Source of the DNA: Verrucomicrobiia bacterium
Lineage (GTDB): Bacteria; Verrucomicrobiota; Verrucomicrobiia; Limisphaerales; UBA1100
Assembly (NCBI GenBank): GCA_014239365.1
Contig: JAAZZB010000006.1
Span: 6,307 to 70,306, forward strand
Reading direction: 5' to 3'
DNA: 64,000 bases
Part shown: one piece after another, positions 8 through 32,811 of the stretch
Position numbering within the stretch: position 1 is the first letter of the stretch
Layout of the letters: every line of letters begins with the position of its first letter
Notes under the pieces: model-generated
What the model was told of the DNA's origin: nothing
What the model saw: only the letters and a program-made list of their open reading frames with translations
Database searches by the model: none
Program-made: the position numbers and the translations under genes

Positions 8-3000
8 ATGATGACGGCGGCGTTGTGGTTCGTGTTTTCAGGAAACACGACCGCAGCAGATTGGCCGATGTGGCGCGGGGATGTAACGCGCAGCGGAGCA
101 ACGCGCGAGGCTTTGCCCGCCAAATTGGACTTGCTCTGGACGCGCAAATTGCCTCCGGCCAAGCCGGCTTGGCCAAACGAAGTGCGCTTGCATTTTGATG
201 CCTCGTACGAACCGATCGTTTCCGGAGGGCGTATGATAGTGGGTTCGCCCAATGACGGCAGTGTGACGGCTTACGACACTAACACCGGACGGGAGTTGTG
301 GAAATTTTTCACAGACGGGCCGGTGCGGTTGGCGGCGGTTGCGTGGAAAGAGAAAATTTATTTTGGTTCGGACGATGGCTATTTGTATTGCCTCGATGGG
401 GCGAAGGGTTCGCTGCTTTGGAAAGTGCGCGGGGCACCGAGCGCGCGCCGCGACTATCGGCACTTGGGCAACGGCCGACTGATCTCGGTTTGGCCGGTGC
501 GCGGCGGGCCGGTGCTGGCCGATGGCGTGGTGTATTTTGGCGCGGGCGTGTGGCCGTCGATGGGAGTTTTTGTTCGCGCGGTCGATGCGGCGACGGGCAA
601 GGTGATTTGGACTAACGCCAACAGTCACGCGATTGAGAATGTGCGCATCGATCATAATTATTTGCACGAGTCCGGAATTTCGCCGCAAGGGCATATGTTG
701 ATTTCGGGGGATCTGTTGATCGTACCCAATGGCCGCTCGATGCCTGCGCGGTTGGATCGGAAAACCGGTGAACTTAAATATTTTGTGCAAGGCTACCGCA
801 ATGGCGACAGCCGAGTGATTCTAGGCGGCAAGGTGGCATTGGTCGGCGCCAGCGGCGTGATCAACCTGAAAGACGGCCGCGAGATTGGCAGCCGCTGGGC
901 GACGGCCGGCAAGGATGCCCCTTCGGGGTGGAGCTCGAAAAAGGATCTCTTTGAGGGGCCGATGCATGCTTACAAATTTCTGCCGGGTTGTGATTATCGT
1001 TCGGTCGTTGACGGCTCTGCCTGTTACGGGATGCACAAGGGCGTGCTTTTTGCGTATGATCTCAATCGGGCAATCACCTCGCTTTACAATCTCGATGATC
1101 AAGGGAAAACGCTAAAACCAGTGCGCTGGGATGCGCCGCTCCTTTGGAAACTGGATATTGGAAAGCTGGGAACAACAAATCACAAAACGCTCATCAAAGC
1201 GGGCAAACAACTTTACGGCCATGTCGGCAAGCAACTGTTTTCGATTGGTTTGCCGGTCGCGAAAGTAGTGCCCCCGAAACTAATCTGGTCGAAAAAATTA
1301 AACTCGGAACCGGCAACCATTTTGGCCGCTGACAAAAAATTGTTTGTGGTGGCGACGGACGGAACGATTCAATGTTTCGGCAAGGCAACCGCGGAAGCAA
1401 TAATTCATGAACACCAATTCGGGACCGTTCCAAAGGATGGCGATGCGGCGCAAATCGTGAAACGAGCATTGAAGGGAACGCCACCGCAGCGCGCTTATGC
1501 CGTGGTATTAGGAGTCGCCAACGGGGATCTCGTTCAAGCGTTACTGGATCACACAATCATGAAAGTGATCGTGCTCGACGAAAATCCCAAACGAATCAAT
1601 CAACTGAAACAACGTCTCTCCGCGCACGTTAATTACGACAACTTCCAAGCGATCGTTGGCACGGCGAATACCGTTGAACTCCCGCCTTATCTCGCGAGCC
1701 TGATTGTTTCGGAAACTCCGGATGCCCTGAAGCTCACTGACACAAAATCGGTTGGACAAATTCTCAAGTCTTTGCGGCCGTACGGCGGAACCCTCTGTTT
1801 CCAGCTGATTCGCGACGAACAATATGCCGTTGCGAAAACAGTTGGCAAAACGAAAATGGCCAACCTGCGGATCGAGACAACCCCAGATTTACTTTTCATC
1901 CGTCGTCTGGGCGGTTTGCCTGGCGCGGCTGATTGGACGCACGAAACAGCTGATGCCGCGCGGTCATTTTTCTCCAAGGACGAATTAGTCAAAGCACCGC
2001 TCGGAGTGCTGTGGTACGGCGACGGGCCCGATCATGGTTTTCATAAACGCAAGGACTACGGACACGGTGTTAAGCCGCAGGTTGCCGGCGGTCGGATGTT
2101 TGCCCTGCAAGTTGCTTCTAGCACGCTGCACGCGGTGGATGTGTACACGGGCCAGGTTTTGTGGACGCGCAAAGTTGGCGGCTCGGCTCGGTACGCTTCG
2201 TTTCCCGATGCGGTTTATGTCGCCACCGGACGATCTTGCGAGGTGCTGAATGCCGCGGATGGAAAAACAAAAAACACGTTCAATATGGACATCGGCCAAC
2301 CGGATAACCAACCCGCAAGCGCCTCGGATATTCGAGTAGACGGCGATCTCATTCTGATCGCCATCCGATTCAACAACGAAAACGCAATCAGCAAAGGTCG
2401 CTGGAACAGTCAATTACTCGTCGCGCTGGATCGCAAAACGGGCAAACAACTTTGGGCGCGCAAGGCCGAACATCGATACAACACTGCGTCGATCGCGGTG
2501 GCCGACGGGCGCGTGTTTTGCGTCGACTCCCATTCGCCTGAAGAAATTTCCAAGATGTCCCGCCGCGGCGAACCGACCGATACATTGCCCTCAACCGTCT
2601 TGGCTCTTGAAGCACGCACCGGAAAAGTTCTTTGGACCACCGTGAAAAAAGATCCCGCCGCCGTTCATCACTCGCTACATTTCCTCGGCCTCCGCACCAA
2701 GGACGATTGGCTTACCTACTCGGCCGAGCACAAAATGCTGCTCACGGGCAAATCGGAAAACACCTACGCCTTCAACGCCACCAACGGCCGGCAAATCTGG
2801 CACAAACCCGTCCGTGGAAATCAGCCGCTCATCCTCGGGCCAAACTCGTTTATCAATCAGGCCGGCCATACTTACGAGGTCGCCACCGGCAACATCCTGA
2901 GCAGCGTGCCACTGTTCCGGCGAGGCGGCTGCAACTACGCGGTCGGAAATAAAAATCTGTTATTCCTACGCGCCAACTGTGCCGCTTACGTTGATATCAA

Positions 3001-3205
3001 AAGCCGCCAGCAATACAACCTCCGCAATCTGCGTTCCGGCTGCAGCAACAGTTTGGTCGCCGCCGACGGGTTGTTAAACATCCCGTGCTTTTCCGTCGGC
3101 TGCGTTTGCAACTACCCGATCCAAACCTCCTTCAGCATGTTTCACATGCCCGCCGCCAAACAATGGCACGGCCCCGCCCAGCCGCAGGAAGTCCCAAAGA
3201 ATTAA
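8..3205 (+). CDS. PQQ-like (BamB-type) beta-propeller repeat protein with a central degenerate Rossmann/methyltransferase-like insert. Possibly truncated at the 5' end by the window edge.
   Basis: Long ORF with recurring propeller blade motifs (DWPMWRGD, GRELWKF, GSLLWKV, GKVIWT, GKQLWAR, GKVLWTT, GRQIWHK). Residues ~495-600 (AYAVVLGVANGD...VIVLDEN...ASLIVSE...LRPYGG) look like a class-I MTase fold. Cys-rich C-terminus. The reading frame is still open at position 2. Confidence 0.8.
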   Translation: MMTAALWFVFSGNTTAADWPMWRGDVTRSGATREALPAKLDLLWTRKLPPAKPAWPNEVRLHFDASYEPIVSGGRMIVGSPNDGSVTAYDTNTGRELWKFFTDGPVRLAAVAWKEKIYFGSDDGYLYCLDGAKGSLLWKVRGAPSARRDYRHLGNGRLISVWPVRGGPVLADGVVYFGAGVWPSMGVFVRAVDAATGKVIWTNANSHAIENVRIDHNYLHESGISPQGHMLISGDLLIVPNGRSMPARLDRKTGELKYFVQGYRNGDSRVILGGKVALVGASGVINLKDGREIGSRWATAGKDAPSGWSSKKDLFEGPMHAYKFLPGCDYRSVVDGSACYGMHKGVLFAYDLNRAITSLYNLDDQGKTLKPVRWDAPLLWKLDIGKLGTTNHKTLIKAGKQLYGHVGKQLFSIGLPVAKVVPPKLIWSKKLNSEPATILAADKKLFVVATDGTIQCFGKATAEAIIHEHQFGTVPKDGDAAQIVKRALKGTPPQRAYAVVLGVANGDLVQALLDHTIMKVIVLDENPKRINQLKQRLSAHVNYDNFQAIVGTANTVELPPYLASLIVSETPDALKLTDTKSVGQILKSLRPYGGTLCFQLIRDEQYAVAKTVGKTKMANLRIETTPDLLFIRRLGGLPGAADWTHETADAARSFFSKDELVKAPLGVLWYGDGPDHGFHKRKDYGHGVKPQVAGGRMFALQVASSTLHAVDVYTGQVLWTRKVGGSARYASFPDAVYVATGRSCEVLNAADGKTKNTFNMDIGQPDNQPASASDIRVDGDLILIAIRFNNENAISKGRWNSQLLVALDRKTGKQLWARKAEHRYNTASIAVADGRVFCVDSHSPEEISKMSRRGEPTDTLPSTVLALEARTGKVLWTTVKKDPAAVHHSLHFLGLRTKDDWLTYSAEHKMLLTGKSENTYAFNATNGRQIWHKPVRGNQPLILGPNSFINQAGHTYEVATGNILSSVPLFRRGGCNYAVGNKNLLFLRANCAAYVDIKSRQQYNLRNLRSGCSNSLVAADGLLNIPCFSVGCVCNYPIQTSFSMFHMPAAKQWHGPAQPQEVPKN

Positions 3206-3401
3206 AAAGCGAGAACAAATTTTGGGTGGCGCGGCATCGACATTGGGGGGTTCCTTGGGCCCAATGACCGCCGCTGAAGCGGGGGATGAAATCAAAAACA
3301 GAGCAAACAATGCGAGGGAAACGGTCGTGGCTTTCACGCCTTCAATTTACCACACACTTGCCGGTTGTCAACTGACTGACAACATTTAATGTAAATATAA
3401 T

Positions 3402-3462
3402 CTGATGTTCACAATATACAGGATGAATTTTTATCCTGAATATCGTGGGCATCTGTGTTCAA
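3402..3462. repeat. 61-nt dispersed intergenic repeat, copy 1 (internal hairpin CAGGAT-N8-ATCCTG)
   Basis: Matches 11554..11614 at 54/61 positions by hand alignment. Lies in a convergent intergenic region. Confidence 0.8.
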
Positions 3463-3522
3463 ACAAAACCGCCCCACAGCGCGAGGCTGCGAGGCGGATG
3501 AATTTGAACTGGCGAACAAGTT

Positions 3523-4080
3523 CTATTGTTCGCGGCCGGCCGGGGCGAGCATCATCTGGAGCCACTCAATCATATCCAGAGAGTTATCACTATTTCTGTC
3601 GCCACCGCGGAACTGCGCCGTGCGCCCGGCGTTTGCGCCGCCTTCGAACATTCGGTTCCACTCGGCTTTCGTCACTTTGCCGTCGCCATTTTTATCGTAT
3701 GTGATGAACAAGCGAGCGCGCTTGTCGCCACGAATCCGTGATTGCAGCGAAGGAGCGCGTTCGCCATTTCCCCCACCGAGATGAATGTCACGGCGGACTG
3801 CCTGAAATTCCTTCACCGTAAGCGCATTCCCCCCGCCACTGTGTTTTTCGAAAACTCCAGTCCACTTCTTCACGCCGCCTTCGCCATATAGACTTTTGAA
3901 TTCGGCGAAAGACATTTGGCCGTCGCGATTTTTGTCAAACCCCTTGAAGATGCGCACCTGTTCTTTGTCAAACGACTTGTCGAGCAACGCCAAAAGCTTG
4001 GCGTCATTGTTCTTTGGTTTGGCCGAAGCGATGAACGCGCTCAGCACCAGTGCAAAGGTGAGGATGATCTTTAGTTTCAT
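3523..4080 (-). CDS. Secreted EF-hand calcium-binding protein
   Basis: Signal peptide MKLKIILTFALVLSAFIASA. Three EF-hand loops (DKNRDGQMSFAEF, DKNGDGKVTKAEW, DRNSDNSLDMIEW). Paralogous to the C-terminal domain of the upstream anti-sigma factor. Confidence 0.85.
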   Translation of the reverse strand: MKLKIILTFALVLSAFIASAKPKNNDAKLLALLDKSFDKEQVRIFKGFDKNRDGQMSFAEFKSLYGEGGVKKWTGVFEKHSGGGNALTVKEFQAVRRDIHLGGGNGERAPSLQSRIRGDKRARLFITYDKNGDGKVTKAEWNRMFEGGANAGRTAQFRGGDRNSDNSLDMIEWLQMMLAPAGREQ

Positions 4081-4112
4081 AGTTTTCCTTGGTTGTTGTT
4101 TTTTGGTTTGGT

Positions 4113-4955
4113 TTATTTTTCTTTGCCGCCGGATTTCCGGTTGAGCCAGTTTACAAATTCATCGCGATCCAGCACATCGTCGCCGTTCTGATCGGATTCG
4201 TTGAATTGCCGCTCGCGGGCGGGATGTTGACCGGGACCTTCGAACATTTGTAGGTATTCTGCGCGCGTCACTTTCCCGTCGCCATTCTCGTCGTAGGCAG
4301 CGAACATTTTCCCCGCACGGCTTCGTTCAAATTGCAGTTTGCCGGGCGGACGTTCACCGCTGCCCGCGCCATTGCGGATGGCCGCACGCAGTGCCTGAAA
4401 TTCACTCATCGAAAGCTCTTCGTCGTTGCCTGAATGTTTTTGAAACATTGACTGAAACCGCACCGCGCGCCCGCCGTATAACCCGTCGAATTCCTCAAAA
4501 CTCATCGCCCCATTGCCGTCGCGGTCGTACCGATCAAATATCTTCAATTCCTGACGATCACGATAGCGTTGCTCGTATTTTTCAAATCCAAGCAATCCGA
4601 GTGCATGATCCAGCACCGGCGCATCCGCCGCCGCAAGCATCATCACCGCCACCACCGATGCCGCAATGCCCCACGCCCAACCGGGCAGCCCCGCCCACGC
4701 ACGACGCGGCGCGGCGATCACATTTGCCGGCGCTTTGTTTTCGGCTTCCTCCACCAACGATTCCAGCCAAGCCGCCGTCTGCGCCGAGGAACACGCCAAT
4801 TGCAATTCATCCTCCAATGCTGAAGCGAGGCGCGCCGTTGCCACAAATTCTTCCAACGCGCCCGCGTCAGATCGCAGCGCTTCCTCCAGCTCAGTGGCCT
4901 CCGATGTTTTGCCATCGAAATACTTGCCGAGCTGTCTTTGATAATCGCTGTCCAT
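4113..4955 (-). CDS. Membrane anti-sigma factor with a periplasmic triple EF-hand domain
   Basis: The start ATG overlaps the sigma factor stop codon (TAATG at 4953-4957). Short cytoplasmic N-terminus, one TM segment (GLPGWAWGIAASVVAVMMLAAA), then EF-hand loops DRDGNGAMSFEEF, DENGDGKVTRAEY, DQNGDDVLDRDEF. Confidence 0.75.
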   Translation of the reverse strand: MDSDYQRQLGKYFDGKTSEATELEEALRSDAGALEEFVATARLASALEDELQLACSSAQTAAWLESLVEEAENKAPANVIAAPRRAWAGLPGWAWGIAASVVAVMMLAAADAPVLDHALGLLGFEKYEQRYRDRQELKIFDRYDRDGNGAMSFEEFDGLYGGRAVRFQSMFQKHSGNDEELSMSEFQALRAAIRNGAGSGERPPGKLQFERSRAGKMFAAYDENGDGKVTRAEYLQMFEGPGQHPARERQFNESDQNGDDVLDRDEFVNWLNRKSGGKEK

Positions 4956-11624: not shown

Positions 11625-13028
11625 TCAATCCTTGTAATCCCCGCCGGTGTCGCTGTGGCGGCAGGATTTGCGCCATTGCTCAAAAGTCGCGGTCATTTTT
11701 TTGATGAGGTCTGGGTGTTGGTCGGCGAGGTTATTTTTTTCAGCGGGATCTATTTTTAGGTCGAATAGTTTTAACTTGGGCAATCTGTTGGTCTGTTTTT
11801 TTCCGCTGCCATAAATTTTGTACCGATCACCAATGAGCGCCACTTGGCCGGCGGATTGAAATCCGATGGGCTGGCCGCGCTCTTTCATTTTGCCTTTGAA
11901 GAGCGGGAGCAAACTGATGCCGTCCAAAGGGCGCTTGTCAGTTTGTTCAGCACCAATGATTTCTAAAATGGTGGGCAGATAATCACTGGTGACGGCGGGG
12001 ATGTCGGTGTTGGCGGGTTTAATTTTGGCAGGCCATTCGATGAGGCCGGGCACGCGGATGCCGCCTTCGAGTAGTGATCGTTTACGGCCACTTAAATGAC
12101 CGGCACTGCCGGGATCCTTGGCGCTCCCTTCGGGGCCGTTGTCGCTGCAGAAGGCGAGCAGCGTGTTGTCCGCGATGCCAAGCGTGCGGAGTTCTTTGCG
12201 CAAGCGGCCGACTTGTTCATCGAGCGCGGTGATGCAGCCGAAATAGTGTTGTTCGAATTTTCCGTGTTTGGCATAGGGCTTGGTGTATTTCGGCCCGGCA
12301 ACCACGGGGAGATGCGGCGCGTGAAACCACACGATGGTGAAAAAGGGCTGCTCTTTTTTTGCCGCCGCGCGGATGAATGGAATGGCGCGATCCATAATCA
12401 CACGCGAATCATCGCCGCGCAGATTCTCTGTCACGCGCGCGCCTTTTTCATTCCAGTACGCCGTACCGTACGGGCCGTTTTCTTTTGCGGGATCCCACCA
12501 CTTACGGCTGTTGTTGTTTACGGGGCGCAGCATTGGATCCCACGTGGGCACTTTAGATTCGGTGGAAAAACACACGTCGAAGCCATTGGCTTGTGGCGGC
12601 GAAAAATTCTTTGCGCCGCGCGGGCCGCCGCGGTTGGCGTCCATTTCAGTTTTGGTAAGCGTACCGAGATGCCATTTACCAAAGTGGCCGGTGGCGTAGT
12701 CGTGTTTTTGCAATAGCTCGGCCAGCGTCAGCTCTTCCGTTTTCATGTGGCCGGTATTGGCAAAATAAATGCCGTACCGAAAGGGATGGCGCCCCGTGAT
12801 GCAACTGCCGCGCGTGGGGCTGCACACCGGCGCGGCGGCATAAAACCGCTCAAAGCGCAGGCTGTTTTTCGCCATCGCATCGAGGTGCGGCGTTTGGATG
12901 ATTTTGTTTCCGTTAAACCCCACATCGCCCCAGCCGAGGTCGTCGGCCATCACGAGAATAATGTTGGGTTGGGCCGCCGTTGCCAGTATTGGCGCGGCAC
13001 AAATGAACGCGAACAGTATTCTACGCAT
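11625..13028 (-). CDS. Sulfatase (formylglycine-dependent)
   Basis: PNIILVMADDLGWGD, CSPTRGSCITGR, GKWHLG. The start ATG overlaps the upstream gene's stop codon (TAATG at 13026-13030). Confidence 0.9.
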   Translation of the reverse strand: MRRILFAFICAAPILATAAQPNIILVMADDLGWGDVGFNGNKIIQTPHLDAMAKNSLRFERFYAAAPVCSPTRGSCITGRHPFRYGIYFANTGHMKTEELTLAELLQKHDYATGHFGKWHLGTLTKTEMDANRGGPRGAKNFSPPQANGFDVCFSTESKVPTWDPMLRPVNNNSRKWWDPAKENGPYGTAYWNEKGARVTENLRGDDSRVIMDRAIPFIRAAAKKEQPFFTIVWFHAPHLPVVAGPKYTKPYAKHGKFEQHYFGCITALDEQVGRLRKELRTLGIADNTLLAFCSDNGPEGSAKDPGSAGHLSGRKRSLLEGGIRVPGLIEWPAKIKPANTDIPAVTSDYLPTILEIIGAEQTDKRPLDGISLLPLFKGKMKERGQPIGFQSAGQVALIGDRYKIYGSGKKQTNRLPKLKLFDLKIDPAEKNNLADQHPDLIKKMTATFEQWRKSCRHSDTGGDYKD

Positions 13029-15202
13029 TAGGGGTTCCAGTTTAATTTTTCAAGGTCCTCTTCGGACACGCGTTCCACGTGGCCGTCGGCGAAGCCGATG
13101 AGGTAATGATCATTTAGAGTAAATACGTCATTGATGCCACCCGCACCGTTCCAGCCAAGATCGCTTTCGAAAAACACCACGGTGCGCGCGGCCTCGCGCA
13201 AGGCATCGAGCTTGATGCCACTGAGATTTTTGTTGAACGCGTACGAACTGCCATCGGCACCGGGATCGGCAGGCGAAATGAACACCGCTCTTTCGTTGCC
13301 CACGATTGGCAACAGCGCATCGCTCCACTTGGCAGCGTCGGGCAGTTGATCGTTGTCATTATGAAACACGTGAATCGCAACACCGAGTTGTTTGAGGTTG
13401 TTCATACTTTGAGCTTCGCGCGCTTTGGATCGGCCATTTTGAATCGCCGGCAACACCAATGCCGCCACCACCGCCACGGGCACCACGGTGCCCACCGCGA
13501 GCACAGCGGAATCGTAGCCCAACCCTTCGGTGTGTGTGTGCAAGAGGAAGCCCTCGGGCAAAACCTGCAGCACGGTCACCTGTCCGCTCACCTGAAGAGT
13601 CATCAATTGCACGAATATATTTTGCACCGACTCGGGCAGCATTGCCGCTTCGGCGGCCAATCCTTGTTTAATAATTTTGCCGTACAAGTCCGCCACTTGG
13701 CCGCTCATAAACGTGAATTGGTTCCCCTTCAACTCCATGCCTTTGGTGAGTTTTTTAAACTCCGCGGTGCCGCGCAGGCCGGTGTCCGGATCGGCTTGGG
13801 TGGCAATCACTTTGGCCGCCTGCGCGGGGCTGCTGGCGAGGATTAAATAGCCTCCCAATTGGAACACCACCGGCTGCACAATCATCTCCGGCAAACCCGG
13901 AACGGGAATGGGTGCTGGAATTTGAAACGCCTTCACCCCGGCGATATCCACCTCGGCCAACGTCATCCCCATTGATTCAGCAACCCCTTGCAGCATCGCA
14001 AGCAAATCGCCGTTGTTCACTTTAATCGTGAGAACCAATCCGGGTTCGGGAATCTCCATTCCATCCTCCGCTCGTACGATCGGAGCCACGCCTTCGCCGG
14101 GCACGGTGGGGATGGGAGGGGGCCCGCCGGGCAAAGTGGTTTCCACTTCGGGCATTGGGATTTTATGCAATTTTTGAAAATCCAGCGTCACATAAATACC
14201 CACTTCACCGGCGTATGCGCCAAGGGCTTGTTGCACCGGAGGATGGGCGAGCATCGCATCGAATTGCTCCGCGAGCACGGCGGGATAATTGTCGGCCACC
14301 ATAGTTTTGGCCCACGCGAGGATGGCCGCCGCATCGAGATCGCCGTGGAATGCATACGCCGTTTCGGCGGGCATTAGCGTGAGCCCGTCCAACTCATGCG
14401 GCGCAGTGCCGAGGGCTTTCCACAAAATGCCGTCGCCCTTGGCGGGATCGCGATGGAGCATCGCCACGTTACGCTTGAAGCCATCGCCGAGGCTGCGCGT
14501 GCTTGCGCCGATGCCGTCGATGGCGTCCAACCCCACGCCTTTATAAAAAGCCTTGGCGGCTGCGAAACCCATCGCCGCTTGGCCTGCGTTTTCCTCGCCG
14601 AGCATCGGGCCAAATTGCTCCAGCAATTTGCCGCCTTCATCAAAGCCCGACCGCACCCACCCCTGCGCTTCATCGGTGCTAAGATAAAAATAAAAACTGC
14701 CGCCCGTATCGAGGTGTTGGGTGACCGCTTCAAACGAAGTGCTCGAAGGCCCGTTGGGCGCGAGCGGCACGGAAAGCGCATTCGTGTTTCCAACTCGATC
14801 AGGAACGCCCACGGACGGCGCGTTGGTTTTAGGAGTACCGGCAATCTTTTCCGGCTGATTTTCTGAAGGTGGTTTTCCCCCTTGATCGCCAAGAAATCTA
14901 GGAACCAATACCGCCGCCGTCGCGCCCAGCACCACGACCGCGGCCACGCTGGCAACCAGTAATTTTTTACTGCCACCCTTTTTGACAGGGGACGCTTTGG
15001 CGGGTGCGTCCTTCTCTAATGGAGCCGGTGCGTTACCGCCATCCAAGGTGCCCAGCACCTCCGTCACCGGCACCCAATCCGGCAAAGCCGCGTGCCAAGC
15101 GAAATCCGTCTCGATCAACGCTCCGCTCGCAAGGCATTCCTCAATTTGTTCCGGCGAAAATGGCCCGAACTGCCCGTCATCACGTTTGACATAAATTTCC
15201 AT
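13028..15202 (-). CDS. GYF-domain / TM / large extracytoplasmic domain protein ending in a pilin (DUF1559-like) module
   Basis: N-terminal GYF_2-type domain (GQFGPFSPEQIEECLASGALIETDFAWHAALPDWVPV), a TM segment, and a central domain homologous to 15280..17217. The last ~159 aa (nt ~13031-13507) are a hydrophobic helix plus LPAIQNGRSKAREAQSMNNLKQLG...H-X9-DG (HYLIGFADGH). Confidence 0.8.
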   Translation of the reverse strand: MEIYVKRDDGQFGPFSPEQIEECLASGALIETDFAWHAALPDWVPVTEVLGTLDGGNAPAPLEKDAPAKASPVKKGGSKKLLVASVAAVVVLGATAAVLVPRFLGDQGGKPPSENQPEKIAGTPKTNAPSVGVPDRVGNTNALSVPLAPNGPSSTSFEAVTQHLDTGGSFYFYLSTDEAQGWVRSGFDEGGKLLEQFGPMLGEENAGQAAMGFAAAKAFYKGVGLDAIDGIGASTRSLGDGFKRNVAMLHRDPAKGDGILWKALGTAPHELDGLTLMPAETAYAFHGDLDAAAILAWAKTMVADNYPAVLAEQFDAMLAHPPVQQALGAYAGEVGIYVTLDFQKLHKIPMPEVETTLPGGPPPIPTVPGEGVAPIVRAEDGMEIPEPGLVLTIKVNNGDLLAMLQGVAESMGMTLAEVDIAGVKAFQIPAPIPVPGLPEMIVQPVVFQLGGYLILASSPAQAAKVIATQADPDTGLRGTAEFKKLTKGMELKGNQFTFMSGQVADLYGKIIKQGLAAEAAMLPESVQNIFVQLMTLQVSGQVTVLQVLPEGFLLHTHTEGLGYDSAVLAVGTVVPVAVVAALVLPAIQNGRSKAREAQSMNNLKQLGVAIHVFHNDNDQLPDAAKWSDALLPIVGNERAVFISPADPGADGSSYAFNKNLSGIKLDALREAARTVVFFESDLGWNGAGGINDVFTLNDHYLIGFADGHVERVSEEDLEKLNWNP

Positions 15203-15232
15203 GGGTGGAGGCGATCACCCTGACAGGCCGAC

Positions 15233-15266
15233 AAAAAAAATGCCAGCGGGAAAAATTCCCGCTGGC
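15233..15266 (-). terminator. Rho-independent terminator after gene 15280..17217
   Basis: Perfect 10-bp stem GCCAGCGGGA / TCCCGCTGGC (15242-15251 / 15257-15266) with a 5-nt loop, followed on the minus strand by a run of 8 T (15233-15240). Confidence 0.65.
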
Positions 15267-15279
15267 GGTGAAGTTTAAC

Positions 15280-17217
15280 TTAGCGCCGCTTTTGGCCGGT
15301 CCAGTTGAGCCCGTTGGATTCGGTGAATCTCACCTGCCGCGCAGAGCCATCGGCCAAAACCACCGCGATCGTTTGCAACGAGCCATAAAGCGGATTTCGC
15401 GCACGCATGCCATGAATATCCGCCGCGCCCCCTGAGCCGTTCCAGCCTAACGGACACTCGAAAACCAGCACGGTGTCCGGTGCCAGATCAAAGTAACCCT
15501 TACCCGCCACCGCGGCATTGAGCGCATACGAGCTGAAATCCTGCCCCGCCTCTGCTCGAACGGAAGCGGAAGGGTCTTGTGGAGAAACGTAAATCTTTCG
15601 TGTTTGCGCTTCACGCAGAATGTCATCACACCAGCGCGCGCCTGCGGGCAGTTTATTCCCGTTATCCTGCGAATACCCCAGCAGAGCCTTGCCCAATGAC
15701 GCAGCATTATTCACGCTCTTGATAGCATTCGCCTTTGCCTTGGCCTTAGCCAGCGCGGGGAGCAGCATACTGGCGAGCACGCCCACCGTGGCCACAGTGC
15801 CTGCGCCCCCTCCGCCGCCGGCCATCAAGCCGCCGCCGGTGGCGCGGTTGTCCACCAGCAAGCCATCGGGCAACCGCTTGACGAGGATGACTTGGTGCGA
15901 AACATAGTTAGCGAACATGCCGATGAGCTGCATCATTGCCGCGCGTGCATTGGGGTCTCGGAATTCCCGTTCGCCGGCCAAGGCTTCCTCCACAAGTTTC
16001 AAGCCCATCGTTTTCACAGCCGGGCTGAGGTAAAACAAATGGTTACCCTTCAGCTCCATGCCGGCGGTGACTTTTTGGAATTCCGCCGTGCCTGCCAGCC
16101 CCTTTGATTTGCCCGACTGAATGGATGCCAATTCGCCGGCCAATTCCTTGGTGCTGGCCAACACCAGATAATCGCTCAGCTTCAGCAGGGTTGGGCTCAG
16201 CGGAAAGGGAATCTCCTCCCCGGGCGGGGGCATAAGGGTGAATGCCTTCACCCCGTCAATGCTGGTTTCCTCAGCGCCTTGCGCCTGCAGCATGCCGCCG
16301 AGCATTTGCATGAGCAGCGTATTTTTTACCTTCACCGCCAACACGAAGCCCGGCTCAGGGATGGTGATGGTTTCCTGCACAAACCGATCGTTGCCTTTGG
16401 CGTCCACCTCCCATTTGCCGCCGTTGGGGAATTCAACCGTCTTGGTGGGATGCAACAGCACAGACACACCCGCCTCGCCTCCAAGTGACTGGAGCAGTTC
16501 TTCCACCGGCACATTGTTGTTGGCCATTTGCGAGAGCATGGCGTTGAATTCCCGCGCCATTGCCGGGTCCTGCTTCGCCATGAATGCCTTGATCCACGCC
16601 CAACCAGCCGCCACGTCGAGATCACCGTGCATCGCCAACGCGGTGTTGGCGGGCATCAACTTCAGCCCGTCCAGCTCGTGCGCCGGGCCGCCCAGTAATT
16701 TCCACAACAATCCTTTATCCTGCCCCGGCCAATGATGAGCCATCATCGCATTGCGCCGAATGCCGTTTTCGGTGATGAAACTGCTCGAGCCCGTGCCGCT
16801 GATGTCGTTCAAGCCTGATTCCTCGTAGGCGCTGCGTAGCACCTTCAACACAGCCAACGCCTTCGGGTCGCCCTCCGCTTTCAGCATCGTTTCAATGAAG
16901 GAAAGCATCCCTTCCATCATCGTCCCCATCCCTTCGTTGCTTTGGTAGGAAAACGCGCTGCCGCCGAAGTCCAAGTGCTTGGCCACCTCCGCCATACTCG
17001 ATTTCTGCGGCGAAGCTTTGGCCGCGGGAGTTTCCGCCCGTTGATGGGGCGACAAGGGCACGGAACCGCCCCCACCTTCGCCCGCGCCGGCACCATTGTC
17101 TTTGGGCGGCGGCGTGGTGTTATCGTTGGAATCGCCCTTGCCACAACCAGCCACAAGCCCGATGGCAAACAAGACGATGGGGAGAATATTGAATTTCTTC
17201 ACAATGGTTTCTTTCAT
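15280..17217 (-). CDS. Lipoprotein paralog of 13028..15202 ending in a pilin (DUF1559-like) module
   Basis: Lipobox LVAGC. The central domain aligns with its neighbour (HLDFGGSAF.., GLLWKLLGGPAHELDGLKLMPANTALAMHGDLD). The last ~175 aa (nt ~15283-15807) contain MLLPALAKAKAKANAIKSVNNAASLG and VVLADGSARQV. Confidence 0.8.
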   Translation of the reverse strand: MKETIVKKFNILPIVLFAIGLVAGCGKGDSNDNTTPPPKDNGAGAGEGGGGSVPLSPHQRAETPAAKASPQKSSMAEVAKHLDFGGSAFSYQSNEGMGTMMEGMLSFIETMLKAEGDPKALAVLKVLRSAYEESGLNDISGTGSSSFITENGIRRNAMMAHHWPGQDKGLLWKLLGGPAHELDGLKLMPANTALAMHGDLDVAAGWAWIKAFMAKQDPAMAREFNAMLSQMANNNVPVEELLQSLGGEAGVSVLLHPTKTVEFPNGGKWEVDAKGNDRFVQETITIPEPGFVLAVKVKNTLLMQMLGGMLQAQGAEETSIDGVKAFTLMPPPGEEIPFPLSPTLLKLSDYLVLASTKELAGELASIQSGKSKGLAGTAEFQKVTAGMELKGNHLFYLSPAVKTMGLKLVEEALAGEREFRDPNARAAMMQLIGMFANYVSHQVILVKRLPDGLLVDNRATGGGLMAGGGGGAGTVATVGVLASMLLPALAKAKAKANAIKSVNNAASLGKALLGYSQDNGNKLPAGARWCDDILREAQTRKIYVSPQDPSASVRAEAGQDFSSYALNAAVAGKGYFDLAPDTVLVFECPLGWNGSGGAADIHGMRARNPLYGSLQTIAVVLADGSARQVRFTESNGLNWTGQKRR

Positions 17218-23564: not shown

Positions 23565-25238
23565 TCACCGTGCAGTTGATTTCACCGGCTCGGGCTTCTT
23601 CGCGGGCGGCTTGGGCGGGAGCACGGTGAGCCAAAGGTGGGACGAGGTGGGGATGATAAAATCGGGGAAGCCTTGAGGGACGCCGTTGTTCACGCTGGCG
23701 CTGGTGAGGGCGACGGTGGCGGGCGCGGCGGGTTTACCTTCGGGCGTGATGGTAATGGCCAACGGGGCGTTGTGGGGCAGCGCGTCTTTGGCAGCGATGA
23801 GTTTTAGGGTGGCGGTGCCTTTCTTTTCCATGATGACGTGCGCGGCGCTCACCCCTTTGGGCAACTCTTTTGCGGCGACGGTGAGTTTGCCTTTGTAGCC
23901 GTCTAGGTAATTGATGGTCACCTTTACTTCGTTGGTGTCACCGGCATTTATGGCGAATTGCGGCGCGGCGACGGTAGCGCTGAAGCTGGGTTCGGGCTGG
24001 TGAATTTTCAGCGTATAAAAATATTCGCCGCCACCTTTGTGCAACAAACTGCGAACGACCGCGCAATAGCGGCCATCGGCGGGAGCCGTCCAGTTGAGCA
24101 ACGGGTCGCGGATTTTATTGGCGTCGTCGTTGTTGGTGAGTTCTTTGCCATCGGAATTCTCGACCGACACCCGCGCGTCCAGCAGGAAGCCAAGCGCAAA
24201 CGAATCGATATCCAGCCGATAGCGCGCGCCTTTCTTGGCGGTGAAAGCAAAGCGATCGATGTCGCCGGGCTTATCGATGCGGCCGGAAAGCGTCGCGGGC
24301 GCGGCGAAAGATTGCGCGGTCGCGTTGGTGTCGTTCGGCTCGCGCTCGGCAATTTGTGGCCACGGCGTCACCGGCAAACGCAGCGGGCCATTTGCGGCAT
24401 CTACCGCTAAAACGGTTTCGCGGTTGGAATTTTCGGGCGTGGCGGCGGAGGTATTTTTTAAGTTCCAGCCAATCAATCCAACGCTGCCTTTCGTGCCGGA
24501 CGTCGCTCCGTGCGGCCATCCGTGGCGGATCCACGGACCGTTGGTAAGAGTGATGCGGTAAACATGATTTGCGCCGCCGCTAAAACTCGAGGTGCTGTTC
24601 GCGGGGAATTTGAATGCGGCGACTTGCAACACATATTCGCCATCGCGATCGCATTTCCAAACGAGTCGCGGGTCGAGTGAGTGGGCGTCGTGATTAAAGG
24701 CAAGCTTCACGCCGCGTGGGTCGCGCAGCATCATCAGCGCATCCATCGAAACTCCGGCGGTGTACGCGTCTAGCTGCGCGATGAAAAACTGGCCGGCCTT
24801 GAGCTTGACGCGGTAGCTGTCCACATCGCCGCCGCTTTGCAGTTTGCCGTGGACGACCACTGGCAGCGCGTCCACCGCCTGCGGCGAGCGCATCTCGTTG
24901 TTCGGCTCCTTCTCCGGCACATCGGGCGCTTTGCTTACAAAAAAAACACGCGGCGGCGCGGTGCCGTTGCCGTCAAAAAAACGCACGAGATGAGGCCCGG
25001 GCGTGACGCCTTTGGCGACGGTGATTTTGAAGAACCCTTTTTTCTTCGCATCGGCTGTGATCGCAATTCCGGGATCGTCCGCCCAGGTTTTTATGGGCCA
25101 CTGAAACTTGCCGCCAATTTGCGCGAGCGCCTCGCTGCCGCGCTGGGCACCGATGGGAAAGAGCCATTCCACCTGCGGCGGCGCAGCGACTGCCGTGAGT
25201 GAAAATAGAATTGCCGCGATGGCCGCGCGGATCATCAC
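23565..25238 (-). CDS. Secreted protein with pre-peptidase C-terminal (PPC) type domains
   Basis: Signal peptide. Two EPN(N/D)...G.I...GD(V/I)D.(Y/F) modules (EKEPNNEMRSPQ...GGDVDSYRV and EREPNDTNATAQ...PGDIDRFAF). ATGA start/stop overlap with the upstream gene at 25235-25238. Confidence 0.7.
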   Translation of the reverse strand: MMIRAAIAAILFSLTAVAAPPQVEWLFPIGAQRGSEALAQIGGKFQWPIKTWADDPGIAITADAKKKGFFKITVAKGVTPGPHLVRFFDGNGTAPPRVFFVSKAPDVPEKEPNNEMRSPQAVDALPVVVHGKLQSGGDVDSYRVKLKAGQFFIAQLDAYTAGVSMDALMMLRDPRGVKLAFNHDAHSLDPRLVWKCDRDGEYVLQVAAFKFPANSTSSFSGGANHVYRITLTNGPWIRHGWPHGATSGTKGSVGLIGWNLKNTSAATPENSNRETVLAVDAANGPLRLPVTPWPQIAEREPNDTNATAQSFAAPATLSGRIDKPGDIDRFAFTAKKGARYRLDIDSFALGFLLDARVSVENSDGKELTNNDDANKIRDPLLNWTAPADGRYCAVVRSLLHKGGGEYFYTLKIHQPEPSFSATVAAPQFAINAGDTNEVKVTINYLDGYKGKLTVAAKELPKGVSAAHVIMEKKGTATLKLIAAKDALPHNAPLAITITPEGKPAAPATVALTSASVNNGVPQGFPDFIIPTSSHLWLTVLPPKPPAKKPEPVKSTAR

Positions 25239-26554
25239 GCGAAGAGTTCCTTGATGCGCGCGCCGCCGTCCACCAGTTGCACCGGCCGACCGGTGGCAGT
25301 GTGCAGCACCTGATGCGGATCGATGCCCAGCTTGCGGTAAAGCGACGCGGCAAAGTCTTCCGGCGTGTAAACATTCTCGGCGGCGTAGTAGCCCTTTGCG
25401 TCAGTGGCCCCGACGATTTGCCCACGCGGAATGCCCGCCCCGGCCATTAGCACGCTCATCGCGCCGGGCCAGTGATCGCGCCCGCCTCGCTTGTTTACTT
25501 TGGGAGTCCGACCAAATTCGCCGAGACAAACAACCATCGTGTCGTCCAATTGCCCACGCACATCGAGGTCATTGATCAACGCCGCGAGGCCCTGATCCCA
25601 GCTGGTCATAAACTTGCCGTTGAGCGTTTTGAAAATATTCGTGTGATGATCCCAGCCGCCGTAATAAACCGTGACGAACGACACGCCCACCTCCGTCAAG
25701 CGCCGCGCGAGTAACATCCGTTGGCCAAGCGAGTTGCGACCGTAAGCGTCGCGCACTTTATCGTCTTCCTTCGAAATATCAAACGCCTTTTGCGCGGCGG
25801 TCGAGGTGACAAGGTCGACGCCCTGCGCGTTGAAGCGGTCGAAACTCACCGCCGGATCCTTCGCCACCTTATCGGTGATGCGCAACAGGTTATCCAGTTC
25901 ACGGCGCAACACTTGTCGATTCTCCGCGCGACCCTCGCTGATGCCCTGCGGCAACACCACATCGCGCACCTTAAAACTTTTGTTGTTGGGATCGCCCGAG
26001 ATGACAAACGGCGCGTGCTCCGCACCCAGAAAATTCGGCCCGCCCGAACGGGTCATCCGGCCAAGGCTCATGTAAGGCGGCAACCCCTTGATCACGCCGC
26101 GCTCGTAACTGGTCATCGATCCAAATGACGGATGGAAGGTCACGAACGCGCCACAATTCACCGGCACCGGCGTCGGCCGACCGGTCATCATATAGTGATT
26201 GCCGCCCCCGTGATTCGGATCCTTATGCCAGATCGACCGCACGATCGTCACCTTGTCCGCCACCTTCGCCAAGTGCGGCACCTTGTCGCAAAAATTCACC
26301 CCCGGCACTCTCGTCTTCATCGCGCCAAACTCGCCGCGAATCTCTTTCGGCGCATCCGGTTTCGGATCGAACGTCTCATAATGTGACGGCCCGCCATCGA
26401 GCCAAACCAGTATGCAATTAATCTTCTTTCCCGCCTGCGCCTCCCGCGCCCGCAATAAATCCGCCAACCCCAGGCCCATCATCCCGCCCAAGCCCACCTG
26501 CAAAAAGTCCCGGCGACCCATTCCCGCGCAATTGTATTTTCTCCGGTTCATCAA
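25235..26554 (-). CDS. DUF1501 (sulfatase-fold) protein with Tat signal
   Basis: RRDFLQVGLGG twin-arginine motif and the GGRDHWP signature. Confidence 0.85.
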   Translation of the reverse strand: MMNRRKYNCAGMGRRDFLQVGLGGMMGLGLADLLRAREAQAGKKINCILVWLDGGPSHYETFDPKPDAPKEIRGEFGAMKTRVPGVNFCDKVPHLAKVADKVTIVRSIWHKDPNHGGGNHYMMTGRPTPVPVNCGAFVTFHPSFGSMTSYERGVIKGLPPYMSLGRMTRSGGPNFLGAEHAPFVISGDPNNKSFKVRDVVLPQGISEGRAENRQVLRRELDNLLRITDKVAKDPAVSFDRFNAQGVDLVTSTAAQKAFDISKEDDKVRDAYGRNSLGQRMLLARRLTEVGVSFVTVYYGGWDHHTNIFKTLNGKFMTSWDQGLAALINDLDVRGQLDDTMVVCLGEFGRTPKVNKRGGRDHWPGAMSVLMAGAGIPRGQIVGATDAKGYYAAENVYTPEDFAASLYRKLGIDPHQVLHTATGRPVQLVDGGARIKELFA

Positions 26555-30141: not shown

Positions 30142-31899
30142 TTATCGGCGCCCCCCCATCCGCCGAAGCATCAACAACCGAAACTCCAGCGCCTCGTCGC
30201 CGGGAATTTTCAGCGCGCGCAGCGTGAGCTCGCCTTTGCCTTTTTTCAATGCAATCACGCCCATGTTTACCGCCTTAAAATCCTTCACGTACGATTCCGC
30301 GCGCGGCACGCGATCGTGTTCCTGCCCGCGCGCGGGAGCTTCGTGCGGCTGCGCAATCGTGTGGCGCAGACGGTTGCCGTTGTGGCTTAGCTCCAGCACC
30401 GCGCCTTCGCTGCCCTTGGGCACGGCGTAGTGCAGCGTCACTTCAAACCGTCCATCAGCGCCCACCTCCGCGAGCCACGTGAGTTGATCATCGAGCTTTG
30501 TCCAGTTTGTAAAATAAGTGCAATTGGGAAAACGATTGGATCGCTTGAGGCCGCCGTGGGCGGTGGCGTCGCGCGCGGGGATTTGGGTCCATTCAAAATC
30601 CGGATGGCCAATCACGAAGGGTCGTGTGTCCTCGCCCAATTCCACCGCCACAGTTTTTTTCCAACGCGCCACCTCCTCGCGCAATCGAGTGGCGAGGGCC
30701 GGATTGGTTTTGCTGATGTCAATACGTTGGCCGGGGTCAGCCGTCATATCAAAAAGTTTCCCCGTGTGATCCAGCCGATGCGTTTGTGTGCGCGCGCTCA
30801 CGCGGCCTTTCCAGTGCGAAAAAATGATGCGCTCCGGCCATCGCCCTTTCTGCCCAAGCAACAAAGGCTTGAGGCTGCGGCCATCGAGGGGCTTTTTGCT
30901 GGCGACCGGAATGCCCGCGCAATCGGCCAGCGTCGGCAACAAATCCAGCACGGCGGCGATGGGCTTGATGCGGGTGGCCTTCGGAATGGCTTTGGGCCAG
31001 CGCACGAGCAATGGCGATCGCACGCCGCCTTCGTCAGTGGAGCCTTTGCGGCCTTTCATTCCACCGTTCCAACGCCAGCCATTCGGACCGTTATCGTGGA
31101 AGAAGACCACGATGGTGTCGTCGGCAATTTTTAGTGCATCGAGTTTTTTGAGAATGCGGCCCACGTTCCAGTCGATATTTTCGCACATCGCCAGAGCGCA
31201 ACGCAGATGCGGCGGATTTTCCCGCTTGGCATCGCGAAAGTGCATTGCGATTTTTTTGTCTTTGAATTTATCCCACCAACGATCCGGCACTTGCATCGGG
31301 CTGTGCGGTGTGTTGTACGGCAAATAGGCAAAGAATGGTTTTCCGTCCGTGTTAGCTTTTTCCATAAACGCCATCGCTTTGTTTGTGAAGTCGTCGATGC
31401 AAAATCCTTTGCCCTGCACCAATTGCCCATTGCGCTCCAGCGGCGGGCTGAAATAATTGCCCCAGTGGCCGGAGCAAAACCCATAAAATTCGTCAAAGCC
31501 GCGGCCATTCGGGTGATACGGATATTGCATTCCATTGTGCCATTTGCCGAAAGCACCGGTCGCATAACCGGCGGCCTTGAAGGTGTCGGCGATGGTTTGC
31601 TCATCAAGATCCAACCGCTCGCCGCCGGCGGAAGTGCTGTAAACGCCGCCGCGCACGTGATAACGACCGGTCAAAAATTCAGCGCGCGTGGGTGAGCAAA
31701 CGGGGCAAACAAAAAAGCGATCAACGCTCGCGCCATCGCGGGCAAGCGAATCGATGTTTGGCGTTGAGAGATTTTTGTTTCCGCTCAAGCTCAAGTCGCC
31801 CCAGCCTTGGTCGTCGGTGAGGATGACCACAATGTTGGGCGGGTTCGCGGAAGCCAATCCACAGAGGAAAAATGAAAGAAAAAGAATGGTGCGTTTCAC
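30142..31899 (-). CDS. Sulfatase (formylglycine-dependent) with C-terminal extension
   Basis: [33 protein letters not shown]. About 130 extra aa at the C-terminus. Confidence 0.9.
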
Positions 31900-31953: not shown

Positions 31954-32652
31954 TTACTGATTATCCCAGAGCGCTCGGGCATCGCCGGCTTCGTGTTGGA
32001 AACCGATGTGACTCACCGGTAGCCGCCCGGCATTGCCATCGGCAAAGATGGTGCTGGCGCGGCCGCGATGGCGATTGATCATTCGCACCGGGGCTTGCTT
32101 GGATGGCTTCCACGAGGGAGCCGTGGGCACTGCGAAACGCGCGCGCGTGGAGTTGTCCATTTTACTGGAAACATCTTCGCGCCACAAATCGGGGTTCGTC
32201 TCATCGGAGTTCGCCACGGGCCCGGCATCGCCGATCACCACCGTTTGCGCTGGCTTCAGCACCTGCCCGATTGTGATGCCGCGACTGGCGAGCAGGCGAT
32301 TGTACGCTAAACCACCGTGCGTGCCCGTGCGGCATTCGGGACAATGCCACGGTTGATGTTCATCGGAATACTTGCCCAGCAATTCGGTCCACAACAATTT
32401 GCCCGATGATTTTTTTTTAACTTTGCCCGGGCGCGGCTGGCTGAAGGGCACGAGCCGCCCTTCGTTATCCTGCGAGTACTGGAGAAACGCTTCGCCCAAC
32501 GCGCGGCAATTATCGAGGCATTGCGTGGCGGCCGCTTGAGTGCGCGCTTTGAGAATTGAAGGAATAATCAGCCCGGCCAGCAGTCCGACCACTGTTAAAA
32601 CAATAACCAATTCCACCATGGTAAATCCATGGCGCGCACGGGAGGTTGGCAT
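31954..32652 (-). CDS. Prepilin-type N-terminal cleavage/methylation protein with DUF1559 (H-X9-DG) domain
   Basis: Leader MPTSRARHG followed by the cleavage motif G|FTMVELVIVLTVVGLL. C-terminal HRGRASTIFADGNAG. Confidence 0.85.
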   Translation of the reverse strand: MPTSRARHGFTMVELVIVLTVVGLLAGLIIPSILKARTQAAATQCLDNCRALGEAFLQYSQDNEGRLVPFSQPRPGKVKKKSSGKLLWTELLGKYSDEHQPWHCPECRTGTHGGLAYNRLLASRGITIGQVLKPAQTVVIGDAGPVANSDETNPDLWREDVSSKMDNSTRARFAVPTAPSWKPSKQAPVRMINRHRGRASTIFADGNAGRLPVSHIGFQHEAGDARALWDNQ

Positions 32653-32811
32653 GCAGCGCAGGCTGGGTGGCATTGGGAAAAGCGTACATCACTATTTTAG
32701 TTAGTCAACCCTAACGATTCAAGTTAGTGAAAAAATCCTGCCAATTCCGATGAATTTTGGCAGATTCAAGATGAAACACGCTTTTTGGACCCAATTGAAA
32801 ATGAGGAGAAA

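Follow-up and report, generated by a model that had tools for sequence, protein, structure and literature searches.

Pilin-derived modules at the C-terminus of exported, membrane-tethered proteins in a verrucomicrobial genome

A C-terminal pilin module without a class III signal peptide

We analysed a 64,000-nucleotide stretch of the genome of a marine Verrucomicrobiia bacterium (Limisphaerales, UBA1100; assembly GCA_014239365.1, contig JAAZZB010000006.1, positions 6,307 to 70,306), hereafter the window. Two adjacent minus-strand open reading frames (ORFs), at positions 13028–15202 and 15280–17217 and labelled P1 and P2, encode exported, membrane-tethered two-domain proteins that carry a pilin-derived module at the C-terminus. 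An earlier reading of the letters alone (the original prediction) had proposed this pilin/DUF1559-related module and its lack of a class III signal peptide, and Pfam, sequence profiles, an alignment of the heads alone and a search for the cleavage site all agree with that proposal. The explanation we favour, with a probability of roughly 0.6, is that P1 and P2 each hold a tethered, unprocessable pilin head in the periplasm behind the exported domain.

Both ORFs were recovered at the positions first given for them, and ORF calls, Pfam and sequence concur on their different beginnings: P1 opens with a GYF domain and a transmembrane (TM) segment, P2 with a lipobox. The putative lipobox at the end of FAIGLVAGC (P2 residues 17–25) matches the pattern [LVI][ASTVI][GAS]C, as do its equivalents in P3, a third full-length paralog of the source genome, and in about 30 homologs. 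Hydrophobicity was scored on the Hessa translocon scale as the sum over the best 19-residue window, in kcal/mol; the first TM segment (TM1) of the P1 orthologs, which have the GYF form, scores −1 to −3.3 kcal/mol. These orthologs are 72–90% identical to P1 and share its architecture throughout. Aligned by BLASTP, P1 and P2 show 35% identity over 620 columns (E = 5e-82), the C-terminal module included, and are paralogous as judged by their sequences. A central domain common to both had been noticed at the outset, and the sharing holds; its length is nearer 400 residues than the ~350 then estimated. The AlphaFold2 (AF2) model of P2 contains two confident domains, with a mean predicted local distance difference test score (pLDDT) of 81. 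Each protein continues from the central domain into an apolar segment (H2), a helix matching the C-terminal half of the pilin N-terminal helix (α1C) and a globular head (Table 1).

Several comparisons tie the C-terminal tail to pilins. Pfam places SBP_bac_10/DUF1559 (PF07596) on residues 588–624 of P1 with 31.4 bits (cut-off 23.3), covering model positions 1–37 of 268 only; the corresponding scan of P2 gives no match whatsoever, PF07596 included. A profile built from 63 family members was compared with the Protein Data Bank (PDB), where the best solved relative by sequence is the pseudopilin GspG (5wda, E = 3.4e-6, chain residues 7–72). Further matches comprise Neisseria PilE, GspG of enterohaemorrhagic Escherichia coli, geopilin and PilA structures, all in a constant register in which pilin residue 6–7 corresponds to family profile position 472–473. 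The check suggested beforehand, a profile search for a pilin/DUF1559 relation of the C-terminal segment, thereby returned one, both as PF07596 in P1 and as the GspG and PilE structures. Within the source genome the same 63-member profile detects about 28 ordinary prepilin genes, through profile positions ~455–570. With the α1 helix removed, hhalign still aligned the family heads with the canonical prepilin heads of this genome (95.6% probability, E = 1e-8, 98 columns), bringing the motifs SPxDP, SY, TVL, W-G and ADGS into line. One canonical resident prepilin is 73% identical (32/44) to P2 at the positions matching pilin residues 14–57, and BLASTP extends this alignment to 204 columns at 36% identity (E = 1e-11). 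By these alignments the tail of P1 and P2 is pilin-related, homologous to the prepilins of its own genome from mature residue ~6–14 onwards. An AF2 model of the P2 module alone (pLDDT 92) consists of a 41-residue helix and four strands.

What the module lacks is the start of a pilin. The prepilin peptidase site, searched as G[FMILVYW][STA][LMIV][IVLT]E, occurs nowhere in P1, P2 or P3, and Pfam and NCBIfam scans of P1 and P2 gave no match to N_methyl (PF07963) or TIGR02532. Because the leader, G-1, F1 and E5 are all missing, prepilin peptidase cannot cleave the module. The α1N of a pilin comprises ~21 strongly hydrophobic residues at the N-terminus that serve as an N-in anchor; here the corresponding segment is internal, at residues 565–587 of P1 and 464–490 of P2. 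Since the domain N-terminal to the module is exported, the module cannot sit N-in in the membrane as a pilin does while awaiting polymerisation. Family models for particular pilin types were less informative: P1 reaches 18.4 bits with the GspG model TIGR01710 (cut-off 88.85), and TIGR04294, which describes an H-X9-DG motif, has no NCBIfam match in P1 or P2 at E ≤ 1. P1 has H-X6-DG in its place (HYLIGFADG), and P2 an ADG without His at −10.

The prepilin at 31954 served as comparator. It had been described as a bona fide DUF1559 prepilin, of which the prepilin part stands (GFTMVE, N_methyl) and the DUF1559 part does not, there being no such Pfam call. Its matches are N_methyl and GspG-like only, despite an H-X9-DG-like HRGRASTIFADG. 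A PF07596 match is absent from most other canonical prepilins of the source genome too.

Table 1 Features of P1, P2 and associated genes in the window. Residue numbers refer to the protein named; Hessa sums are for the best 19-residue window.
Feature	Position	Strand	Description
Sulfatase, 467 aa	11625..13028	-	PF00884, E = 8e-53; start overlaps the P1 stop (TAATG)
P1, 724 aa	13028..15202	-	GYF, TM1, central domain, apolar segment and pilin-derived module; ORF with Pfam GYF_2 and SBP_bac_10
P1 α1C helix (588–617) and head (618–724)	13031..13441	-	PF07596 at 588–624; weak GspG match (TIGR01710); heads-only hhalign
P1 apolar segment H2, residues 565–587	13442..13510	-	putative remnant of pilin α1N positions ~6–22; Hessa sum −0.09 kcal/mol, borderline
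P1 central domain, residues 154–564	13511..14743	-	exported; apparent remote relative of DUF3352; aligns with P2 and ~100 homologs
P1 TM1, residues 81–100, LLVASVAAVVVLGATAAVLV	14903..14962	-	Hessa sum −1.3 kcal/mol
P1 GYF_2 domain, residues 4–49	15056..15193	-	PF14237, 34.2 bits (cut-off 25.8); cytoplasmic by position
Terminator-like hairpin between P2 and P1	15242..15266	-	11-bp stem with 8 GC pairs, T8 tail
P2, 645 aa	15280..17217	-	lipoprotein signal, central domain, Gly/Ala-rich apolar segment and pilin-derived module
P2 α1C helix (491–520) and head (521–645)	15283..15747	-	resemblance to resident prepilin; AF2 of module
P2 apolar segment H2, residues 464–490, LMAGGGGGAGTVATVGVLASMLLPALA	15748..15828	-	Hessa sum +2.9 kcal/mol; AF2 pLDDT <50 at 468–489
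P2 central domain, residues 72–463	15829..17004	-	AF2 pLDDT mostly 80–95
P2 lipoprotein signal peptide, residues 1–25	17143..17217	-	lipobox LVAGC (residues 21–25), read from sequence
Canonical prepilin (comparator)	31954..32673	-	GFTMVE, G-1 = residue 16; N_methyl 25.5 bits, TIGR02532

A family in Verrucomicrobiota and Lentisphaeria

P1 and P2 belong to a large family in the Planctomycetota–Verrucomicrobiota–Chlamydiota (PVC) group whose members combine an envelope anchor, an exported domain of ~400 residues and a pilin module without a class III signal peptide. Word-indexed searches returned about 100 relatives, all from Verrucomicrobiota assemblies where named and all of one architecture, beginning either with GYF plus TM or as a lipoprotein. 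An exhaustive hidden Markov model (HMM) search of 1.84 billion representatives yielded 749 clusters at E ≤ 1e-30. Of 139 new representatives, 86 contain a strict motif, an apolar run followed by LLPAL..A[KR]. Among those failing it 33 were inspected by eye, and almost all have the same design; many P1 orthologs match PF07596 as P1 does. The named members reach Limisphaerales and Lentisphaeria, so that the family extends at least to Verrucomicrobiota and Lentisphaeria. In an even sample of the phylum (151 genomes), the central domain was matched in 13 genomes and in 12 of the 79 genera, mostly in single copy. The source genome is expanded by comparison: besides three full-length paralogs (P1, P2 and, on contig C50, P3) it encodes one protein that shares just the central domain and two that share just the head. 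Gene fusion or misassembly was rejected as an explanation, as hundreds of clusters, drawn from independent assemblies, show the same architecture.

At least three types of head occur behind the same exported domain: DUF1559-like, GspG-like (DxWG...GKDG) and a short type with CPxGGxY...PxC. The central domain has no recognisable relative in the PDB, by sequence or by fold, and Foldseek with the whole P2 model returned nothing from the PDB at E < 0.1. Four homologs exceed the 26.8-bit cut-off of DUF3352 (PF11832) with partial matches within the central domain: P0065 at 28.9 bits, P0099 at 32.6 bits, P0073 and P0104. P1, P2 and P3 show no PF11832 match, nor did a six-frame search that admitted E ≤ 1 bring one up, and DUF3352 membership of P1 and P2 was rejected because the gathering score is not reached; the central domain seems to be remotely related to DUF3352. 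Literature searches found no publication on the family or its architecture and no paper for DUF3352, PF11832 or IPR021787; DUF1559 was mentioned in four papers, only in passing. One metagenomic member, P0107 (1066 aa), contains two stretches of the family profile, and its central domain may be duplicated ahead of a single pilin module.

Topology of the apolar segment and the head

The original prediction had raised a puzzle: with the central domain exported, a membrane-spanning helix behind it would put the pilin-like head in the cytoplasm. Export of the central domain is upheld; the membrane-spanning helix is disfavoured by the Hessa values and by paralogs that have the head alone. The median sum for H2 is +2.9 kcal/mol in the 63-member A2 set and +2.6 kcal/mol in 154 non-identical family windows, of which 2% fall below 0, compared with −1 to −3.3 kcal/mol for TM1 in the same proteins and a median of −2.5 kcal/mol for the canonical α1N of 16 prepilins of the source genome. 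The most hydrophobic part of the pilin helix, FTLIELLVVIAII, has been lost from H2, and P2 has GGGGGAGTVATV in its place. In the AF2 model of P2, H2 lies outside both globular domains, at the N-terminal end of a single long lollipop helix (472–518), where the confidence is low. A buried core helix, the alternative that the original prediction had itself held up against its reading, was rejected on account of this placement.

In the two head-only proteins of the source genome the same head (37–38% identity, E 1e-23 to 1e-25) occurs without an apolar segment. It stands behind a Sec signal in one and behind two GYF domains, an N-in TM segment and an unrelated domain in the other, and by simple topology the head is periplasmic in both. 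Most heads contain 2–5 cysteines, and the C-terminal Cys pair retained in the short type (CPxGGxY...PxC) may form a disulfide like that of the pilin D-region. Because the Hessa values are weak and the same head occurs in periplasmic paralogs, we place the head of P1- and P2-type proteins in the periplasm as the probable arrangement, more surely for P2 and less so for P1. H2 probably lacks the hydrophobicity needed to span the membrane, in which case the puzzle would dissolve.

A number of observations weigh against a periplasmic, pilin-derived head. In a Kyte–Doolittle 19-residue scan 91% of H2 segments exceed the threshold of 1.6, and a TM call is to be expected from hydropathy predictors. 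H2 is free of charge over ~25 positions throughout the family, and its prolines at ~12 and 22 in pilin numbering are conserved; this argues against a loose linker and for selection on its apolar character, with a lipid- or protein-buried role. In P1 the segment is borderline (−0.09 kcal/mol) and the head is devoid of Cys, leaving the topology of this protein ambiguous. Covariation of the WCD/FEC Cys pair (24 C/C, 8 S/S and 15 mixed) is too leaky and was rejected as proof of a disulfide. Foldseek with the P2 head alone found no significant pilin match, the best being EpsG (4lw9, E = 5.8, TM-score 0.40), and no pilus machinery genes were found near family members at the loci examined.

The hydropathy values and the long run without charge would suit a true stop-transfer H2, which would make P2 bitopic, give P1 two TM segments and leave the head in the cytoplasm, in P1 on the same side as its GYF domain. 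The strongly basic flank that follows H2 (KAKAKAKA or NGRSKAR) also fits the positive-inside rule, and in the P1 clade H2 sums of about 0 to 1.5 kcal/mol coincide with heads lacking Cys. Most members, however, lie at +1 to +6 kcal/mol on the translocon scale, and the basic flank comes from canonical pilins, where it lies in the periplasm. The unambiguously periplasmic position of the same head in two paralogs of the source genome and the 2–5 Cys of most heads point the same way, and all characterised pilin folds are extracytoplasmic (PMC8179133). We regard a cytoplasmic head as unlikely.

Proposed tethered pilin heads and their possible role

For a periplasmic head we envisage the following course. 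The whole chain would be exported through the Sec or lipoprotein pathway, and the α1N remnant, rich in Ala, Gly, Val and Pro, would be too weakly hydrophobic to stop transfer, so that the central domain and the head would both come to lie in the periplasm. The tether would be a lipid anchor in P2 and P3, and in P1 the TM1 segment with its cytoplasmic GYF domain. The charge-free remnant of α1 would most likely act as a hydrophobic contact surface, either for the membrane face or for the α1 helices of resident pilins or pseudopilins; in that case P1 and P2 would be non-polymerising, tethered pilin heads. For the marine subfamily with a co-expressed sulfatase, capture or processing of sulfated glycans is a guess at the function.

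A closer involvement with fibres is a less likely reading. The fusion would then join a resident type IV filament or pseudopilus as its terminal or basal subunit, or serve it as an adaptor, with α1 packed against that of the real pilins and the central domain left outside the fibre to act as anchor, stopper or cargo holder; this we think rather doubtful. The 73% identity of the P2 α1 to a resident prepilin suggests a shared partner or homogenisation, and head types follow the pilin classes of the host lineage. Elsewhere in the source genome there are a prepilin peptidase, several platform proteins and at least two platform loci of the type II secretion system (T2SS) or type IV pilus (T4P) kind. 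Pilus assembly proceeds from tip to base (PMC8179133), and by our reasoning only the last-added, basal subunit then has a free N-terminal end. Set against this, family genes do not co-localise with machinery genes, H2 cannot lie N-in in the membrane as pilins do before their extraction, and the proposal is purely inferential. Taken further, it would define a class of ‘tethered pilin heads’, in which a DUF3352-like domain delivers a leaderless module without prepilin peptidase and α1 docks on the filament or pseudopilus bundle, a scheme we put forward as speculative. The N-terminal extension would allow a docked fusion to be the last, basal subunit only, perhaps, though we would not expect it, as an anchor, a terminator or an adaptor to envelope enzymes such as the sulfatase. 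Docking of this kind would fit the ‘fishing-rod’ idea of polysaccharide uptake that has reportedly been advanced for PVC bacteria.

Type V pilins are made from lipoprotein precursors. By analogy the N-terminal part could be a pro-domain, some periplasmic protease cutting before or within H2 and the freed pilin-like subunit joining a fibre; short motifs conserved within clades before H2 (such as EGMGYD or TTGHxPMD), the lipoprotein nature of P2 and P3 and the retention of α1 from ~residue 6 would suit this, but it is very improbable, given that no conserved protease neighbour is found at the loci examined, that E5 and F1, required for normal type IV assembly, are missing, that the motif varies between clades and that two paralogs carry the head without any hydrophobic part.

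Compared with canonical PVC DUF1559 prepilins (PF07963 plus PF07596), the P1/P2 family has in common the α1C consensus LLPAL-KAK-KA--IKS-NNLKQLG-A---YA-D and the head motifs SPxDP, SYA-N, TVL, W-G and ADGS/ADGH. It differs in carrying the module C-terminally, behind an exported domain of ~400 residues, and in an α1N remnant that is 3–5 kcal/mol less hydrophobic. Some family members have an outright GspG-like head (compare the T2SS pseudopilin GspG, 5wda and 3g20; TIGR01710), whereas P1 is far below the TIGR01710 cut-off and Foldseek relates the P2 head to EpsG at no significant level. The modular type IV pilins PilB and PilC of S. sanguinis also unite a pilin module and a large non-pilin module in one polypeptide; there the pilin module is N-terminal, with a class III signal peptide, and after processing is polymerised at the tip (Raynaud et al. 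2021, PMC8179133). In P1 and P2 the domain order is reversed and the class III signal is absent. GltJ-type proteins (NF033761) resemble P1 in having an N-terminal cytoplasmic GYF domain, one TM segment and a periplasmic body, but P1 matches this model in the GYF region only, at 18 bits against a cut-off of 450, and lacks a gliding-motility context.

To our knowledge, the described pilins and modular pilins all begin with the pilin module, since its processing and polymerisation depend on the class III signal peptide. The P1/P2 family comprises hundreds of sequence clusters in which the module comes last and is unprocessable, with at least three head types behind one exported domain. Either pilin heads have found a new use apart from fibre assembly, or fibres have an accessory type of subunit so far undescribed. 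PVC genomes contain dozens of pilin-like genes of unassigned role alongside large sulfatase and glycan-degrading repertoires, and a tethered, non-polymerising head in a conserved sulfatase operon would offer a simpler handle on the ligands of such heads.

The sulfatase junction and gene neighbourhoods

The overlap of the P1 stop with the sulfatase start through TAATG, pointed out in the original prediction, was found. Owing to the terminator-like hairpin between P2 and P1, P2 probably forms a transcription unit of its own, with P1 and the sulfatase in another. A second sulfatase (30142–31899) follows the prepilin at 31954 after a gap of 54 nt, and the original prediction had pointed to pilin-like genes adjoining sulfatases twice in the window. 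Both junctions are real; the general association is not borne out, being at chance level genome-wide, where there are 65 sulfatase-like ORFs and 2 of ~32 pilin-like genes are sulfatase-adjacent against ~1.4 expected. Enrichment of pilin-like genes beside sulfatases was accordingly rejected. The sulfatase-like ORFs are concentrated, contigs C17, C82 and C72 of the genome (G000) carrying 13, 13 and 9, and with ~2 per 100 kb the 3.3-Mb genome is rich in sulfatases.

In relatives whose family proteins are 34–81% identical, an orthologous sulfatase (72–87% identical) comes directly after one or two family genes. Stop and start overlap at this junction (TAATG or ATGA) in three loci (L011, L013 and L015), and in four loci a gene for an HI0933-like flavoprotein comes next on the opposite strand. 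The junction of a P1-type gene with the sulfatase is conserved in divergent relatives, which fits a functional operon and is indistinguishable from inherited synteny within one lineage. Around distant family members the neighbours are unrelated, and no gene is conserved.

Other features of these loci vary. In L017 a 214-aa head-only gene (3138–3782), which shares 43% identity with the L005 protein in its head, is clustered with two full-length family genes and a sulfatase. A pair of DUF1501 and PPC-like genes lies directly upstream of the family genes in three relatives (L015 2977–5948, L016 2937–5952 and L017 112–3077). The orthologs of this pair in the window are at 23565–26554, 8 kb away in another gene string, and the PPC-like gene of the relatives is 66% identical to the window ORF 23565–25238; the displacement suggests a local rearrangement in the window. 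Upstream of the P3-type paralog, a leucine-rich repeat lipoprotein gene is found both in the source genome (L001 293–886) and in a relative (L018 5394–5969), the two being 77% identical. In the relative P3 is followed by a sulfatase and a DUF6807 gene; in the source genome there is no sulfatase, and a 354-aa ORF comes directly after P3.

A GYF_2 domain stands at the N-terminus of several membrane proteins in the source genome. Locus L004 (G000:C30) contains, in order, a Pro/Ala-rich 286-aa ORF with a C-terminal TM segment (183–1043), the paralog consisting of GYF, TM and central domain only (1075–2847) and a gene combining GYF, Ser/Thr kinase and TM (2847–4181); the Pro/Ala-rich protein could be a GYF ligand.

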